Assembly (NCBI GenBank): GCA_963708025.1
Contig: CAVPSB010000022.1
Location: forward strand, 1-64,000
Direction of reading: 5' to 3'
Origin: an uncultured Candidatus Rokubacteria bacterium
GTDB lineage: Bacteria; Methylomirabilota; Methylomirabilia; Rokubacteriales; DASRDR01
Length of the DNA stretch: 64,000 nucleotides
The translations under genes were made by a program, and so were the position numbers. This document shows, in pieces, positions 1-21,139 of the stretch (positions are counted from its first letter, which is position 1; every line of letters begins with the position of its first letter). Under the pieces are notes generated by a model that did not search any database, was not told the origin of the DNA, and saw only the letters and a list, made by a program, of their open reading frames with translations.

Positions 1-3
1 CGA

Positions 4-1920
4 TCACGAAAGAAGCCCCGGCAGCCCCGCATCTTTCGGCCGGTCGGGCACGGGGATGACGGGACGCGCGGTGGTCAGGGGCAGCTCAACGGTGAACGTC
101 GTGCCCCCGCGCGGCCCCACCCGGAGTCCGACGGTCCCGCCATGATCCTCAACGACCTTGTGGACGATCGCCAGCCCGAGTCCGGTCCCGCTGGGTTTGG
201 TTGTGAAAAACGGGTTGAACACCTGGGCCGCCTGGGCGGGTGGGATGCCGGGACCGGTGTCCTGGATCTCGATGCGGACGCGGGGCGTGCCGCGCCGCCG
301 GCCCGGGGCGTCGAGTGCCTCGTCGGGCTCCCCAGACACTGCACGGAGGGTCAGCGTCCCGCCGTCCGGCGTGGCGTCGATCGCGTTCGAGACGAGGTTG
401 ACCATCGCCTGGTAGAGCTGTTCGCGGTCGGCTTCGATGGTCGGGAGTACCGGAGCGTACTCGCGCACCACGATGAGGTGTCGGGCGTCGATCGGGTCGC
501 CGTAGAGCTCGAGCACCTGGTCGAGGAGTTCGGGGACGCGGACGGTCGAGGTCGCCAGGCGTGCCGGCCGAGACAGCCGGAGTACGCTGTCCACGATCCC
601 ATTGATTCGCTCCAGCTCGCGCGGCACGACGTTCTGGAAGCGTTGGCGGAAGCGCTCGTCCCCGAACCGCCGGGACAGATGGCGAGTGAATGTCAGTAGG
701 GAGGTGAGCGGGTTCTTGATCTCGTGGGCCAGTCCGGCGGCGAGCGTGCCCAGTGCGGCGAGCCGGTCGGAGCGGCGGAGCTGCTCCTCGAGCTGGCGCA
801 CCGCGGTGAGATCCCGCAGGACGGCGACGACGCCCAGGTCTCGCCCATCGGCCCCGCGAAGGGGCGCCGCCGTCAACTCGACCTGGGCCGGGGCTGCGCC
901 GGGACGCGCTAGCGTGATGAAGGAAACGGCCCCGGGCGGGCGCGGCCCCCGCATGTAGTCGAGGAGGTCGGCCAGGTCGGGCAGGACGGCGAAGGCCTCA
1001 CGGCATGGGCGGCCCCGAACTTCAGCAAGCCGGCATCCGGTGAGGGCCTCAGCCGCCGGGTTCAGCGTGACCACGCAGCCGTCGAGGTCCAGGGTCACGA
1101 TGCCGCTAGTGAGTGATCCCAAGATGTGGTCGGTGTAGCTCTTGAGGTCCGACAGCTCGGCGAACCGGACGTCGAGCTCGGTCCGCTGCTGCACGAGCTG
1201 GCTCGCCATGTGGTTGAACGCGCGGGCGAGCTGGCCGATTTCGTTGGCGGTCTGGACCTCGATGCGCTGGGCGAGGTCGCCCCGGGAGATGGCGGCCGCG
1301 CCGGCGGCCAGCGCGCGGATCGGCCCCACGATCCGGCGCGCGACGAGGGCGGCCGCGCCGGCCCCGCCCAGAAGGAGCGCGAAGGCCAACAGAGCCAGAT
1401 CTCGCCGGGTCCCGGCGATCGCGGCTTCCATCCGCTCCTGCGACACCGCAACCCGCACCGTGCCCCACCGCTGCCCCTGCACCTCGACCGGCACCGCCAC
1501 CTCGTAGATGCGCTCGCCGGTTTTCGGCAGCGCCGTCTCCTGGAGCAGAAGGACCGAGGTCGCCGCGGCTCGGCGGCCGACCGGGTCGTCGGCTTCCGTT
1601 CCAACATGCCCAGGGTTCAGGCTGGAGGCCGCCACTCTCCCCTCGGCGTCGAGGACGATCGCGTAGGCGACGTCCGCCTCCTGGGCCGTCCGAGCCACGT
1701 TCTGCTCCAGGGCGGTGAAGTTGTAGAGCAGGAGCGGGCCCGTGGAGACCCCCGCCAGGCTCCGCGCGAGGACCATGCTCCGCTGCTGCACCTCGTCGAT
1801 GATCGCCACCCGCTGCTGGTGCTCGACAATCCCAATGAGGCCGGCCATCGTGAGGGTGATGACCAGGACGGCGCCCAGGATGAAGGTCGCCTGGAGCGAT
1901 ACGGCCGGCCGTCGTTTCAA
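4..1920 (-). CDS. Sensor histidine kinase (2 TM, HAMP, PAS, HisKA, HATPase; NtrB/AtoS-like)
   Basis: H-box LAHEIKNPL, N-box NLVSNAIDA, G-boxes DTGPGI and FFTTKPSGTGLGL. Probable TTG start at 1920 overlaps the upstream stop (TTGA). Confidence 0.93.
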   Translation of the reverse strand: MKRRPAVSLQATFILGAVLVITLTMAGLIGIVEHQQRVAIIDEVQQRSMVLARSLAGVSTGPLLLYNFTALEQNVARTAQEADVAYAIVLDAEGRVAASSLNPGHVGTEADDPVGRRAAATSVLLLQETALPKTGERIYEVAVPVEVQGQRWGTVRVAVSQERMEAAIAGTRRDLALLAFALLLGGAGAAALVARRIVGPIRALAAGAAAISRGDLAQRIEVQTANEIGQLARAFNHMASQLVQQRTELDVRFAELSDLKSYTDHILGSLTSGIVTLDLDGCVVTLNPAAEALTGCRLAEVRGRPCREAFAVLPDLADLLDYMRGPRPPGAVSFITLARPGAAPAQVELTAAPLRGADGRDLGVVAVLRDLTAVRQLEEQLRRSDRLAALGTLAAGLAHEIKNPLTSLLTFTRHLSRRFGDERFRQRFQNVVPRELERINGIVDSVLRLSRPARLATSTVRVPELLDQVLELYGDPIDARHLIVVREYAPVLPTIEADREQLYQAMVNLVSNAIDATPDGGTLTLRAVSGEPDEALDAPGRRRGTPRVRIEIQDTGPGIPPAQAAQVFNPFFTTKPSGTGLGLAIVHKVVEDHGGTVGLRVGPRGGTTFTVELPLTTARPVIPVPDRPKDAGLPGLLS

Positions 1921-3551
1921 CGGGCGCGCTCGAGCCACATCTTCCGCAGCGGGATGTACGGGTCGCCGAGGCCGTTGACCTCGATGCTCCGCACGTAGGG
2001 CTGGAAGAGTCGCTCGTAGGTCAGGTGCCAAATCGGGATCACGGGCGCGTCCTCGACAATCAGCTCCTCCGCCCGCTGGTACAGCGCCACCCGCCGCGTC
2101 GGGTCCGGCTCGGCGCGCGCCTTGTCAAGCAGCTCGTCGACGGTCGAGTTGGCATAGCCGAAGAAGTTGCGTGAACTCTGGGAGTGGAAGAGCTTGGATA
2201 GAAAGTTGTCGGGATCGGGGACGTCCGCATACCAGGCGTGAAGGAACACCGGGAACTTCCGCTCCGCCAGCCCCTTGCGGAAGGCGGGCCAGTCGGTGAG
2301 GTAGTGGAACTCGGCCCGGACCCCGACCGCCTCAAGGTCTTTTCGGATCCGCTCGTGTTCGCGCAGCGCGTCGTCGAATCGAACGCTCGACCAGATGGCG
2401 AGGGGCGGGAGCCCCTGCCCACCGGGATAGCCGGCCTGGGCCAGCAGCTCGCGTGCCCGGGTGGGGTCGAACGCGTAGCCCAGGAACTTCGGGTTGTACC
2501 CTGGGGTGCCGGGCGGCAGGATGCCGCGGGCGACGGTCTGGCGGCCGAGGAAGATCTCCGTGATGATCGCCTCGCGGTCGATGGCGTAGATGAGGGCTTG
2601 GCGGACGCGGCGGTCGTCGAGCGGCTTGGCTCGCACGTTGAAGCCGTAGTGCCGATGGTTGAACATGGGACGCTTGACGTACACGAACTGCTGGCTCGCG
2701 ACGACCTGCCGGTAGTCCCGCGTCGGCACGGGGGTGTCCTCGAGCTCGCCCCGCTGGAACTCCTCGTACATCCGGTCGGGCTGCTCGCCGGGGAAGATCC
2801 GGTACACGACGCGTGACAAGCGCGGGGGGCCGCCGAAGTAGTCAGGGTTGGCGGCCAGGACGATCTCCCGCCCCCGCTCCCAGCGGACGAACCGGAAGGG
2901 CCCGGTGCCGACCGGCTGGACGCCGAAGCGCTCACCATCCCGCTCGACCACGTCGCGCGGGACGATCTTCGCGTGGCCGACGGCAAGGACGGACACGAAA
3001 GGCACGGTCGCTTCGGTCAACGTCACCTGGACGGTATGCGAGTCGAGGGCCACAAGCCCGTTGATCCGTGGGACCCGTCCCTCGCGGAACTCCTGGGCGC
3101 CGCGGAGGGTGAGGAAGAGGTCCGCGCCGCCGGAGCTGGTCCGCGGGTCCACGATCCGCGTCAGCGAATAGACGACGTCGTCGGCCGTGACCTCCCGACC
3201 GTGATGAAACCGGACGCCCCGGCGCAGGGTGAAAGTCCACGTCAGCCCGTCACGGGAGGCCTTCCAGAACTGGGCGAGCCCCGGGACGACCGCGAGCGTG
3301 TGGTCGAACTCAACCAAGCCGTCGAAGATCTGCTGGGCGACAGCGAGGCTGTAGACGTCCCGAATCCGCGCCGGGTCCAGGGTGGCCGGGTCGTTCCCGA
3401 GCGGGCGCCGGTACGCACCGCTGTCGACACTCGGCCGGTTGGCGCCCCGCTCCTGCGCCGCCGGCGGCCAGGCGGCGGCCAGGATCGCCACGACCAGGCA
3501 GAACAAGACAAGAAGGGGGGCGCAAGCGCCCCCCTTCCCCCCGACGGACAT
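1917..3551 (-). CDS. Family 5 (peptide/nickel) extracellular solute-binding protein
   Basis: Signal peptide, DPATLDP, W(T)FTLRRGVRFHHG, GTGPF and DRRVRQAL motifs. No permease or ATPase genes are adjacent. Confidence 0.92.
   Translation of the reverse strand: MSVGGKGGACAPLLVLFCLVVAILAAAWPPAAQERGANRPSVDSGAYRRPLGNDPATLDPARIRDVYSLAVAQQIFDGLVEFDHTLAVVPGLAQFWKASRDGLTWTFTLRRGVRFHHGREVTADDVVYSLTRIVDPRTSSGGADLFLTLRGAQEFREGRVPRINGLVALDSHTVQVTLTEATVPFVSVLAVGHAKIVPRDVVERDGERFGVQPVGTGPFRFVRWERGREIVLAANPDYFGGPPRLSRVVYRIFPGEQPDRMYEEFQRGELEDTPVPTRDYRQVVASQQFVYVKRPMFNHRHYGFNVRAKPLDDRRVRQALIYAIDREAIITEIFLGRQTVARGILPPGTPGYNPKFLGYAFDPTRARELLAQAGYPGGQGLPPLAIWSSVRFDDALREHERIRKDLEAVGVRAEFHYLTDWPAFRKGLAERKFPVFLHAWYADVPDPDNFLSKLFHSQSSRNFFGYANSTVDELLDKARAEPDPTRRVALYQRAEELIVEDAPVIPIWHLTYERLFQPYVRSIEVNGLGDPYIPLRKMWLERAR
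3512..3537 (-). terminator. Intrinsic terminator-like hairpin downstream of the small peptide gene
   Basis: Perfect inverted repeat GAAGGGGGGCGC-TT-GCGCCCCCCTTC followed on the minus strand by TTGTCTTGTTCT. Confidence 0.6.
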
Positions 3552-3590
3552 GCGGGATGATCCCGCTCGACTAGACGGCAGCCAGGCCAG

Positions 3591-3722
3591 CTACCAGCCT
3601 CCGCTTTCCGCGTTGCCGATCGCGTGGAAGACGTGAACCGGGGCCTGCGTCCCGGACTCAATCACCGGGGCCACGAGCAGGAACGACGTGAGCACCACCA
3701 AGATCGCGACGAGCTTCACCAT
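3591..3722 (-). CDS. 43-aa secreted peptide MVKLVAILVVLTSFLLVAPVIESGTQAPVHVFHAIGNAESGGW (candidate signalling propeptide)
   Basis: Strong SD GAGGGAGG 7 nt before ATG, a hydrophobic signal-like N-terminus, an upstream sigma54 promoter and a downstream hairpin. Confidence 0.75.
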   Translation of the reverse strand: MVKLVAILVVLTSFLLVAPVIESGTQAPVHVFHAIGNAESGGW

Positions 3723-3819
3723 TGCACACCCTCCCTCAGTCGGCGTTGTGGATGGGTCCGTGGAATCCTCCACGAGAATTCCACGCACGAGAATCCCACG
3801 CGACTGCCCAGACGGCGAC

Positions 3820-3836
3820 AGCAAATCGTGGGCCAG
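3820..3836 (-). promoter_or_regulatory. Sigma54 (-24/-12) promoter
   Basis: CTGGCCCACGATTTGCT matches TGGC-N8-TTGCW with exact GG-N10-GC spacing, about 100 nt upstream of the peptide ATG. Confidence 0.75.
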
Positions 3837-4018
3837 CATCTGGAGCGGCCGAGCGTCAGGGGGCGCGGACGATGATTCCTTCGGTGGTTGGCCCCTGAGC
3901 CTGGCCGGGTCCTCGACCGCCCGCGCGCGAGGAGCGCCCCGGGGCTGTGCACTCGAGCGGGGGATTCCGGAGGAGGAGGTCGCCAGAACGCTCGAAACGA
4001 CGCCATGTTGGATCGCAC

Positions 4019-4036
4019 TGCACAGCGCACTGTGCA
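4019..4036. promoter_or_regulatory. Putative enhancer (bEBP binding) palindrome
   Basis: TGCACAG-CGCA-CTGTGCA within a run of GCACTG/GCACAG repeats, about 185 bp upstream of the sigma54 promoter. Resembles NtrC-type TGCAC...GTGCA. Confidence 0.5.
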
Positions 4037-4429
4037 CTGTGCCCAAGAAACGGTGCCCCCTGGGAGCTCGGGCCCGCCAGCGAGCTGGGTCGCGGCCACC
4101 CCGCAGATCGTCCGGGCTGACGACTCGCGTCGTGGCGATCGACGCGCTCAGTTCGGGGCCCGCCTTCCGCAGCAGATCCACCGCCTCCGGCCAGGCCGGA
4201 TCCCGCCCCGGCGCGACCTCCGCGGCGGGCCGGTCCCCCCGGAGCAGTCCGCCGGCGGGCCTCCTGGCAGTGAAGAGGCCTTCCGCGCCCTACGGGCCGC
4301 GGCAGGGTACTTCCGCGAGGCACCAGGATCCAGACCGGAGGAGATGCGCAGCTAACTTGGCGTCTCAACTGACAGAACGAACCTGGCCATCGGCTTGTTG
4401 AGTACTGTCCCGACCATCAGGCGGCTGCC

Positions 4430-5521
4430 GTCATCGAGACGCTCTCCGACCCGGCCCGCTCGACGTCGCCGGTCGAGGTCCGCCGGGCCTTCGCCCGGTA
4501 CGACCCGGCGGACGCCGCCGACGTCTACCGCCTCCTGGTGGCCCCGGTCGCGGACCTCCTGGCCGATCGGCGCATCGTCTACCTCGTCCCCGACGACGTC
4601 CTCTACCAGGTGCCGTTCGAGACGCTCCTGACCGCGCCGTTCTCCCCGCCGTCACCGGCGCCCGGGGCCATCGGCGCGGAGCTCGAGCAGGCCCCCTTCT
4701 GGGTCCGCCGCCACGACCTCGCCTACCTCCCCTCGGTGTCCGTCCTCCGGTCCGTCCGGACGGCCGGCCCGGGCGGGGGCGAGCGCACGTGGCCGCTGGT
4801 GGCGTTCGCCGATCCCGTCTTCGAGGATCGCGCCGACCCGCCGCCGGGTGCCGTTACGCGCGGCGCGCTGCTCCGCAACCTGCAGCGCGGGGGAGTGTAC
4901 CGGGCCACGCTCGCGCCGCTGCCGGACACGCGCGAGGAGGCGCTCCAGGCGGCCCGCGTCCTGGCCGGCCGACCCGACGACCTTTACCTGGGCCCTCAGG
5001 CCACCGAGAGCGCGGTCAAGCGCCTTCCCCTGCGCGAATACCGCGTGGTGCTGTTCGCGACCCACGGGCTGGTCTCCGGCGAGTTCGCCCCGGGGGTCCA
5101 GCCGGCGCTCGCGCTGAGCTTCGTCGGCGACGCCGACAACGACGGCTTGCTCGAGGTCGGCGAGATCCTGGGACTCGAGCTGAACGCGGACCTCGTCGTC
5201 CTCTCCGCGTGCAACACCGCGGGCGGCGTGGACGGGGAGGACCGCGGCGAGGGCTTCGCCGGCCTGACCCGGAGCTTCATGTACGCCGGCGCCCGATCGC
5301 TCCTGGTGACCCTCTGGAGCGTCGAGACCACGACCGCGCGGACGCTGACCGAGGCCACCTTCGGCCGGATGGCCGGCGCCGGCACCGCGGCAGCGCTCGC
5401 CCAGGCCAAGCGGGCGATGCTCTCGGGAGCTGCCGCCGTCCGCCTCGGCCCCAACCTCGCCGCCTCGATGGCGCACCCCTTCTTCTGGGCGCCCTTCGTG
5501 GTCGTCGGCGACGCCCGGTAG
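4430..5521 (+). pseudogene. CHAT-domain (caspase-like) protease, N-terminally truncated or stand-alone
   Basis: LVPDDVLYQVPFETL, FATHG, LVVLSACNT, TLWSV and HPFFWAPF motifs. Coding-like sequence extends upstream of the first GTG (4538) to an in-frame TGA at 4370 with no proper start. Confidence 0.7.
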
Positions 5522-20728: not shown

Positions 20729-21139
20729 ATGGCGTACTGGTTGCTGAAGTCCGAGCCCGACGATTGGTCCTGGATTGAGCAGGTCGCGAAGGGCCGCGAC
20801 GGCGCGGAGTGGACTGGCATCCGCAACTTCTCGGCCCGGAACCACCTGCGCGCCATGAAGAAGGGTGAGCAGGCCTTTTTCTACCACACGGGCAAGGAGC
20901 GCGCGATCGTCGGCATCGTCGAGGTGATCGCGGAAGCGCATCCGGATTCGACCGACCCCGCCTGGCACGCCATCGACGTCGCCGCGGTCGAGCCGCTGCC
21001 GACGCCGGTCGGCCTCGATCGGATCAAGGCCGACAAGCGCCTCGCCAGCATGGCCCTGGCCAGGCTGCCCCGCCTGTCGGTTCAGCCAGTGACCGACGCC
21101 GAGTGGCGGCTCGTTCGCCGAATGGGGGGCCTCGGCTAG
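20729..21139 (+). CDS. EVE domain protein
   Basis: YWLLKSEP, WTGIRN, FFYHTG and RLSVQPV motifs. Confidence 0.92.
   Translation: MAYWLLKSEPDDWSWIEQVAKGRDGAEWTGIRNFSARNHLRAMKKGEQAFFYHTGKERAIVGIVEVIAEAHPDSTDPAWHAIDVAAVEPLPTPVGLDRIKADKRLASMALARLPRLSVQPVTDAEWRLVRRMGGLG

Follow-up and report, generated by a model that had tools for sequence, protein, structure and literature searches.

A conserved micro-peptide, orphan binding protein and sensor kinase cassette behind a predicted sigma-54 promoter in Candidatus Rokuibacteriota: a possible periplasmic peptide feedback loop

Periplasmic binding proteins that stimulate a sensor kinase are usually encoded beside that kinase; CBP-ChiS and AioX-AioS are among them, and, as far as the available excerpt of the review on such pairs goes, none of the kinase-stimulating binding proteins has a gene-encoded ligand (PMC8050422). 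A comparable layout was found at the end of contig C22 in an assembly (8.17 Mb, 49 contigs) of an uncultured Candidatus Rokubacteria bacterium (GCA_963708025.1). The DNA analysed, referred to below as the window, consists of the first 64 kb of this contig and has a G+C content of 72 %. At its edge, with all elements on the minus strand, a predicted sigma-54 promoter is followed by the gene of a 43-aa pre-peptide, an orphan family-5 binding protein and a sensor histidine kinase (Table 1), together called the cassette. Both binding-protein-aided kinases and peptide autoinduction loops are already known. We know of no two-membrane bacterium that encodes its own small exported peptide beside an orphan peptide-binding protein and a kinase, and full-text searches, subscription journals and supplements lying outside their scope, gave no description of such a cassette. 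The reading preferred here, to which a probability of roughly 40 % is given, is that a Sec-exported peptide of about 20 aa would serve the binding protein as its dedicated ligand, or as the precursor of that ligand, and would act through the kinase and an enhancer-binding regulator on the promoter of its own gene.

The cassette was compared with two samples of related loci. For the first, 40 relatives were searched with the binding protein, which gave 28 ortholog loci in 27 genomes at 59-75 % identity. The second was drawn from a sample of 201 genomes of the phylum, 94 of them peptide-positive, and comprised 40 more loci with a few kb of contig around them; two genomes flagged as unpublished were omitted from it, while the tallies over the phylum sample include the unpublished genomes G080 and G119 and count the unpublished G038 among the negatives. 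The conserved order is a REC-AAA-HTH regulator, palindromes and a sigma-54 promoter, one or more peptide genes, the binding protein, the kinase, and a lone receiver or hybrid kinase. In the first sample, 27 of the 28 loci have the peptide immediately ahead of the binding protein, the 28th (L067) having only 228 nt of upstream contig; in the second sample all 40 loci have it there, with one contig ending at the peptide. The original prediction, made from the letters of the window alone, had expected a small ORF at homologous loci, and one is indeed present in 67 of 68. Where DNA was available, the kinase follows the binding protein in 25/26 first-sample and 33/33 second-sample loci. The regulator is found upstream of the peptide in 23/25 loci of the first sample, in one of them split by an inversion, and in 40/40 of the second. 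Among the 34 relatives covered by both searches, 26 have the peptide and a binding-protein ortholog, seven have neither, and in one the peptide stands where a contig ends. No genes for export, modification or immunity were found in the cassette, nor was an outer-membrane export gene.

The peptide family occurs in 94 of the 201 sampled genomes, namely in 15/16 of family f1, 74/125 of f2, 0/18 of f7 and 0/15 of f8; in f2 its presence is patchy by genus (10/10 in g23, 0/13 in g16). It was seen at one locus only in the own genome and at cassette positions only in the phylum sample. The cassette is conserved across an order of Candidatus Rokuibacteriota, a phylum name taken from one NCBI label. Exceptions to the order are few. 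The window cassette itself has no regulator upstream, and at locus L059 of genome G031 no regulator match was obtained within about 1.8 kb upstream. Genome G012 (L058, G012:C18:326326-335855) lacks regulator, kinase and receiver and retains an open binding-protein ORF; three of the five peptide units are out of frame and the -12 element has changed to ATGC. This locus may be a decayed cassette, and an assembly error in the repeats is also possible. Genome G022 carries a second cassette copy (L057, G022:C164), the upstream regulator gene of which is split, with one part inverted.

The pre-peptides are 39-48 aa long and are encoded in one to five tandem copies per locus, whole ORF units being duplicated, each copy with a strong Shine-Dalgarno sequence of its own. 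By eye, the window peptide divides into MVK, a 15-residue core and P-V-I-E-S, with I-E-S at the -3/-1 positions and Pro at -5, so that its c-region reads as a near-ideal predicted signal-peptidase I site. In the peptide alignment M1, L16-V17-A18-P19-V20, E22-S23, F32, G36 and A38 are invariant and S13-F14-L15, I21 and G24-T25 nearly so, the most invariant stretch being LLVAPVIESGT. After a few variable residues the sequence continues as (V/F)F(Q/H/V)A(V/I)G(N/T/D)A, an F.A.G.A core, and closes with a Gly-rich tail whose final residue is W in 24 of 82 copies, D in 20, G in 10, E in 10 and another residue in 18. Within a 13-codon invariant block, 378 pairwise comparisons contained 1735 synonymous and 776 non-synonymous codon differences; as synonymous codons vary freely there, selection acts at the level of the protein. 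The peptide has no match in Pfam or NCBIfam. A profile search of 1.84 billion representative proteins returned 62 clusters, all of this peptide type or mis-called extensions, with 'Candidatus Rokuibacteriota' as the sole source name, and the ESM Atlas gave unnamed clusters only. Two further families of the class have divergent members, such as MKKLMVLVLVVLGLLAVMPAMEIDSSTQVFSRVGMAEGGGGD, with the same neighbours. Likenesses to Flp pilins (G/XXXXEY), double-glycine leaders and PEP-CTERM proteins were considered and dropped, since the order of motif and hydrophobic segment does not agree with them.

Upstream of the peptide gene the window has the sigma-54 element that had been proposed for it, as well as the 43-aa ORF and its strong Shine-Dalgarno sequence. 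The pattern TGGC-N7-TTGCW has two matches in the 64-kb window where 0.23 are expected, and two were reached in 1 of 100 shuffles; the other exact match, TGGCGTACTGGTTGCT, lies at window positions 20730-20745 (+) at the start of a 136-aa ORF. At the homologous loci, for which a sigma-54 site had also been anticipated, the element is found 74-113 nt before the first peptide ATG in 25/26 cases, TGG and TTGC are invariant columns in the 19/19 loci that were aligned, and the strict pattern is present in 40/40 loci of the second sample. Downstream tandem copies have no promoter of their own. With GG-N10-GC at a conserved distance and rpoN in the genome, the element is best read as a sigma-54 promoter. 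The own genome encodes LpxC and Omp85 in addition to rpoN, which marks the host as a diderm with sigma-54. In the relatives the promoter is preceded by three TGCAC-N8-GTGCA palindromes, the first two with a spacing of 21 bp and the third after about 82 bp more, and the window has kept the 21-bp tandem spacing. Its perfect palindrome is presumed to be a binding site of the enhancer-binding regulator.

Two RNA structures flank the peptide gene. The stem-loop in the 5' untranslated region (UTR) shows compensatory changes in six of its nine pairs among 12 sequences (the 5' UTRs of the window and of L040, L041, L054, L055, L057, L060-L064 and L066) and has a conserved loop, CAUGG(G/U); loci of genus g5 have a different hairpin at this position, GUCCCG...CGGGAC. 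It may serve mRNA stability or as a binding site. The terminator-like hairpin of the original prediction is present as well, not in the intergenic region but inside the first codons of the binding protein, which it also overlaps in several other loci. The block after the last peptide copy has a hairpin among the lowest 10 % of equal-sized blocks of the locus in 20/28 loci, and this hairpin probably lowers downstream expression. Tandem peptide copies, up to five, with a hairpin after the last of them fit a product that is needed in excess over its sensor.

The binding protein scores 312.6 bits against PF00496 (SBP_bac_5), above the gathering score (cut-off 32.4), and 222.9 bits against the DppA equivalog NF043070, for which the cut-off is 1005; it is DppA-like and not DppA. 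The closest solved structures are the peptide-binding protein 8upi (7.7e-77) and DppA 1dpp (2.9e-64). D443 and W440 align with DppA D408 and W405, and among 29 orthologs W440 is invariant and D443 nearly so; we take DppA Asp408 to hold the free alpha-amino group of the ligand. No permease or ATPase gene lies beside the binding protein in the window or at the 68 loci examined, a distant permease being possible, and no permease gene stands between the binding protein and the kinase or next to either. In L065 (G024:C53) and L049 (G022:C423) a second binding-protein gene or fragment, 45-49 % identical, is located between the first one and the kinase. The kinase starts at a TTG that overlaps the binding-protein stop (TTGA), which the original prediction had read as translational coupling, and its domains agree with the HAMP-PAS kinase of NtrB/AtoS type described there; in addition, it has a periplasmic sCache domain of its own. 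A kinase with a periplasmic sensor domain and an adjacent binding-protein gene is the layout of LuxPQ, TorTS, AioXS and CBP-ChiS. By curated NCBIfam models the kinase is best matched by AtoS (319 bits, below the cut-off of 646) and the regulator by AtoC (485 bits, below the cut-off of 714).

The partner regulator had been sought in the gene whose GTG overlaps the kinase stop at the window edge. The overlap is there. In the relatives the kinase stop is overlapped, as GTGA or ATGA, by a gene for either a lone receiver of about 165 aa or a HisKA-HATPase-REC hybrid, and the closest relative begins this gene with GTGATC, like the window. By this comparison the truncated gene at base 1 is taken to be a receiver or hybrid-kinase gene and not an enhancer-binding regulator. 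Because the window begins at a contig end, sequence past base 1 cannot be read in this assembly; a search for the missing regulator at the other contig ends revealed neither an enhancer-binding gene beginning at an edge nor a contig that shares sequence with the start of C22. A REC-AAA-HTH protein next to the cassette was rightly expected, but in the relatives it stands upstream of the peptide and not beyond the kinase.

In the own genome the ortholog of this regulator is encoded on contig C15 and is 62-83 % identical to the cassette regulators of relatives; like these, it has REC, Sigma54_activat and HTH_8 domains. The kinase fused at this locus combines the cassette sensor with GAF-HisKA-HATPase-REC: its N-terminal 520 aa resemble the sensor of the cassette kinase (65 % identity to the window, 69-70 % to relatives), and its C-terminal part corresponds to the hybrid kinase found behind the cassette of L041. 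The C15 locus is syntenic with L041, the same Fe-alcohol dehydrogenase following in both. Since two genes are missing from this synteny, C15 has lost peptide and binding protein together and kept regulator and sensor. The window holds a second cassette copy, with peptide, binding protein and kinase and without a regulator. In the peptide-lacking genomes G029, G030 and G037-G039 neither a kinase nor a binding protein is encoded within 1.5 kb of the closest regulators (59-68 % identity), one of which lies 73 nt from a contig end; these genomes are uninformative.

Tandem palindromes were also sought genome-wide, with at most two mismatches allowed, the reversed control giving 0-1 per genome. Their number was 13 in G010, 11 in G013, eight in G011, six in G016, four in G018, three in G009, two in G012 and one in G004. 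None was found in G015 and G019, which are only 68-70 % complete and in which no binding-protein ortholog was found; no peptide was found in G015, and G019 is outside the phylum sample. Ten palindrome regions of G011 and G016 (among L074-L083) mostly have a GG-N10-GC element within about 200 nt past the proximal palindrome. The genes behind them include those for two patatin-like phospholipases, a protein with a Tle1-like phospholipase domain, an operon of an S8 subtilase and a metallo-beta-lactamase-fold protein (two orthologous copies), metalloprotease-like proteins, an enhancer-binding protein without REC and unknown exported proteins. The regulator of the cassette may bind these sites too. 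In the own genome, palindrome clusters on C11 and C16 each lie beside a sigma-54-like promoter with no clear downstream gene. On C11 a ferredoxin is encoded about 400 nt downstream, with an integrase nearby. The C16 cluster (C16:280572-280712; L072 3572-3713), a third one with a perfect TGGCCCTGCTTTTGCT promoter, comes after a long ORF; the next 740 nt or so contain no convincing ORF and lead to what, by eye, is a likely FabF-type gene.

In the preferred reading, an AtoC/NtrC-type regulator, supplied by the gene just upstream in the relatives and by contig C15 in the own genome, would bind the three palindromes and open the sigma-54 promoter. The resulting transcript would carry one to five pre-peptide genes and the hairpin, followed by the binding protein, the sCache-HAMP-PAS kinase and the receiver protein. 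The pre-peptide would be exported by Sec and cut after ..IES, leaving in the periplasm a peptide of 18-24 aa with the form GT-x5-(V/F)FQA(V/I)G(N/T)A(E/D/C)-Gly(n)-(W/D/E), and this peptide or a shorter fragment of it would be the dedicated ligand of the binding protein. The loaded binding protein would dock onto the sCache domain of the kinase, which would phosphorylate the regulator, so that the peptide promoter would be activated again in a positive feedback. In some genomes the regulator would activate further palindrome-bearing sigma-54 promoters, ahead of secreted hydrolases. That the peptide acts on the sensor is argued for by their near-constant co-occurrence, the protein-level selection on the peptide, its amplification, its position as first gene, its separation from the sensor genes by the hairpin, the joint loss of peptide and binding protein at C15 and the decay seen in G012. 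The ligand reading is also favoured by the retained D443, by the signal-peptidase-like c-region, by the conservation of promoter and palindromes, and by the co-sensor role that is common among binding proteins with a kinase gene as neighbour, the family-5 CBP with ChiS included (PMC8050422).

Several observations weigh against this reading. The peptide tail is conserved across families and not diversified, unlike that of most peptide pheromones, and LLVAPVIESGT at the end of the hydrophobic segment would suit a membrane anchor or a specific partner equally well. The carboxylate-binding Arg355 of DppA is one residue out of register in the binding protein (V390/R391), and R391 is not among the positions with at least 90 % conservation. 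The palindromes of the window are partly degenerate, and the regulator loop, GAFTGA in 53/56 relatives, is GAFTNA in the C15 ortholog. Finally, the single tandem palindrome of G004 is the cassette's own, which leaves the peptide as the only visible output of the loop in that genome.

The quorum loop of the original prediction has proved its weakest part. As the C-terminus of the peptide is conserved across families and not strain-variable, as peptide and binding protein would both be periplasmic in a diderm, and as no export gene accompanies them, a private feedback loop is likelier than quorum sensing. For the latter, a fragment of a size that porins let through would be required. As a special case of the preferred reading, it is quite improbable that the peptide, or a short fragment crossing the outer membrane, is a cell-to-cell signal that is read in the periplasm by the binding protein and the Cache kinase and, through a sigma-54 regulator, switches on secreted lipases and proteases.

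A first alternative has the small protein staying in the inner membrane or periplasm and tuning the kinase directly, in the way of MgrB, ZraP and CpxP, with the binding protein sensing external di- or oligopeptides. It is unlikely, and of the alternatives it survives best. It would explain why LLVAPVIESGT is invariant at the membrane-periplasm boundary, why the peptide is conserved rather than diversified, and why its gene stands under a promoter presumably controlled by the cassette's own regulator. Kinase and regulator resemble ZraS/ZraR and AtoS/AtoC, and ZraP is a sigma-54-dependent periplasmic feedback partner. On the other hand, up to five tandem copies and an attenuator-like hairpin point to a large excess over the kinase, the c-region has the appearance of a near-ideal signal-peptidase I site, and C15 lost the peptide along with the binding protein while the kinase sensor was retained.

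Less probable still is that the system senses environmental peptides and has the micro-peptide as its chief output, a bioactive or surface-active molecule that is secreted and is not its own ligand. The peptide gene comes first behind the regulated promoter and is the one most amplified, and in G004 no tandem-palindrome site was found other than at this promoter; the peptide could be such an output, and next to the secreted hydrolases behind palindromes in G011 and G016 (patatin-like, Tle1-like, S8 subtilase) it would be one more export. Against this, in the genomes examined the peptide occurs at cassette positions only and was never seen without the binding protein alongside; export, modification and immunity genes do not accompany it; and G012, which is without kinase and regulator, has most of its peptide copies out of frame. 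The last alternative, a chance ORF in a GC-rich leader in which the promoter and 5' UTR of the binding-protein operon are the only real element, is already refuted: at 72 % GC such open stretches are frequent whichever of the six frames is read, but the single type among the 62 clusters, the invariant residues amid freely varying synonymous codons, the Shine-Dalgarno sequence on every copy and the tandem duplication of whole ORF units speak against it.

Table 1 Features of the cassette in the window and of the related locus on contig C15
Feature	Position	Strand	Remarks
Distal upstream activating sequence (UAS), degenerate palindrome GGCAC-N8-GGGCA	4040..4057	-	Two mismatches to TGCAC-N8-GTGCA; starts 21 bp before the perfect site
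Perfect NtrC-type UAS palindrome	4036..4019	-	TGCACAGTGCGCTGTGCA; exact match; homologous sites aligned in relatives
Proximal UAS position	3934..3951	-	Only the left half-site TGCAC kept; 85 nt past the perfect site (relatives about 82 nt)
Sigma-54 -24/-12 element, TGGCCC-N5-TTGCT	3835..3820	-	TGGCCCACGATTTGCT; begins 113 nt ahead of the peptide ATG
5' UTR stem-loop, 9 bp	3762..3782	-	Between the sigma-54 promoter and the Shine-Dalgarno sequence of the peptide gene
Shine-Dalgarno sequence	3737..3729	-	GAGGGAGGG; 6 nt ahead of the peptide ATG
Pre-peptide, 43 aa	3722..3591	-	MVKLVAILVVLTSFLLVAPVIESGTQAPVHVFHAIGNAESGGW; n-region MVK, hydrophobic core, ..APVIES / GT..
Tail of pre-peptide, 20 aa	within 3722..3591	-	GTQAPVHVFHAIGNAESGGW; after the predicted signal-peptidase I site IES/GT
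Orphan family-5 (DppA-like) periplasmic binding protein, 544 aa	3551..1917	-	SBP_bac_5, E 4.8e-93; own signal peptide
Terminator-/attenuator-like hairpin, 13 pairs and T/C-rich tail	3539..3510	-	Codons 5-14 of the binding-protein ORF, 12 nt past its ATG
Overlap of kinase start and binding-protein stop	1920..1917	-	TTGA
Sensor histidine kinase, 638 aa	1920..4	-	Transmembrane segment, sCache_3_2, transmembrane segment, HAMP, PAS, HisKA, HATPase_c; AtoS-like
Start of next gene, GTG at 7..5	1..7	-	GTGA overlap with the kinase stop at 7..4; cut by the contig end
C15 locus	C15:224431-230372 (L009 6432-12373)		Regulator, palindromes, sigma-54 promoter, 1352-aa fused kinase, Fe-alcohol dehydrogenase

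The genes farther upstream of the cassette are unrelated to it: a short CHAT-domain ORF, a peptidase C26 gene and a gamma-glutamyltranspeptidase gene. The CHAT-domain ORF (window 4538-5521, +), separated from the peptide gene by about 815 nt of non-coding DNA, encodes just 327 aa, its match begins at profile position 13, and it may be a gene truncated at a rearrangement point. The peptidase C26 gene (5539-6301, -) is split over two frames, which match profile positions 3-142 and 146-219, as the result of a frameshift or a sequencing error. Short contigs assembled from soil RNA (libraries X18 and X19, seemingly the same data deposited twice) match the kinase at 184-366 and the binding protein at 2032-2307. 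No contig falls on the peptide gene, and as such contigs cannot show level, ends or absence, they are uninformative on the peptide.

An almost invariant gene order and the presence of the peptide in nearly half of the sampled genomes indicate that the cassette is important in a widespread uncultured soil lineage. Consisting of a single 20-aa peptide, a soluble protein, a kinase and a promoter, it is a small and testable system, which could show whether gene-encoded peptide ligands operate in the periplasm. If its link to the palindrome-bearing promoters holds, it would also reveal by what means secreted lipases and proteases are controlled in these organisms. Should the peptide be a true cell-to-cell signal, this would be a peptide quorum architecture not known from two-membrane bacteria.

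Several known systems share parts of this arrangement. In Agr-, ComCDE- and nisin-type systems the peptide gene is located in or beside the operon of the sensing kinase and positive feedback occurs, as proposed here, and lantibiotic operons have a leaky terminator after the precursor gene. Their kinases bind the peptide themselves, and genes dedicated to processing and export accompany them, whereas the cassette has no such genes and interposes a binding protein. ZraP-ZraSR, CpxP-CpxAR and MgrB-PhoQP would resemble it in having a small protein, periplasmic or in the membrane, whose synthesis a two-component system induces and which in turn acts on the kinase. These small proteins have no sequence likeness to the peptide, are single-copy and are not accompanied by a binding protein. 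The regulator AioR is sigma-54 dependent, another likeness to the cassette. In AioX-AioS-AioR, too, the genes of a periplasmic binding protein and of a kinase with an sCache-like sensor stand side by side, as described in the available part of the review (PMC8050422). The differences are that arsenite is the ligand, that the binding protein belongs to the phosphonate-binding family and that no ligand is gene-encoded. For CBP-ChiS of Vibrio and DppA-Tap of E. coli the same excerpt describes an SBP_bac_5 protein that signals to a membrane receptor (PMC8050422). Their ligands, unlike the one proposed here, are external chitin oligosaccharides or free dipeptides, their binding proteins also serve transporters, and both pairs are without a dedicated peptide gene or a sigma-54 loop. 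The cassette can lastly be set beside the Phr-Rap and PapR-PlcR systems of Bacillus, from which it differs in having no permease, a membrane kinase encoded next door and a two-membrane host. Those systems work with Opp and, much as proposed for the cassette, have small Sec-exported pre-peptides of about 40-48 aa that are matured outside the cell and recognized by an OppA-type family-5 protein; their binding protein feeds an importer and their receptor is cytoplasmic.

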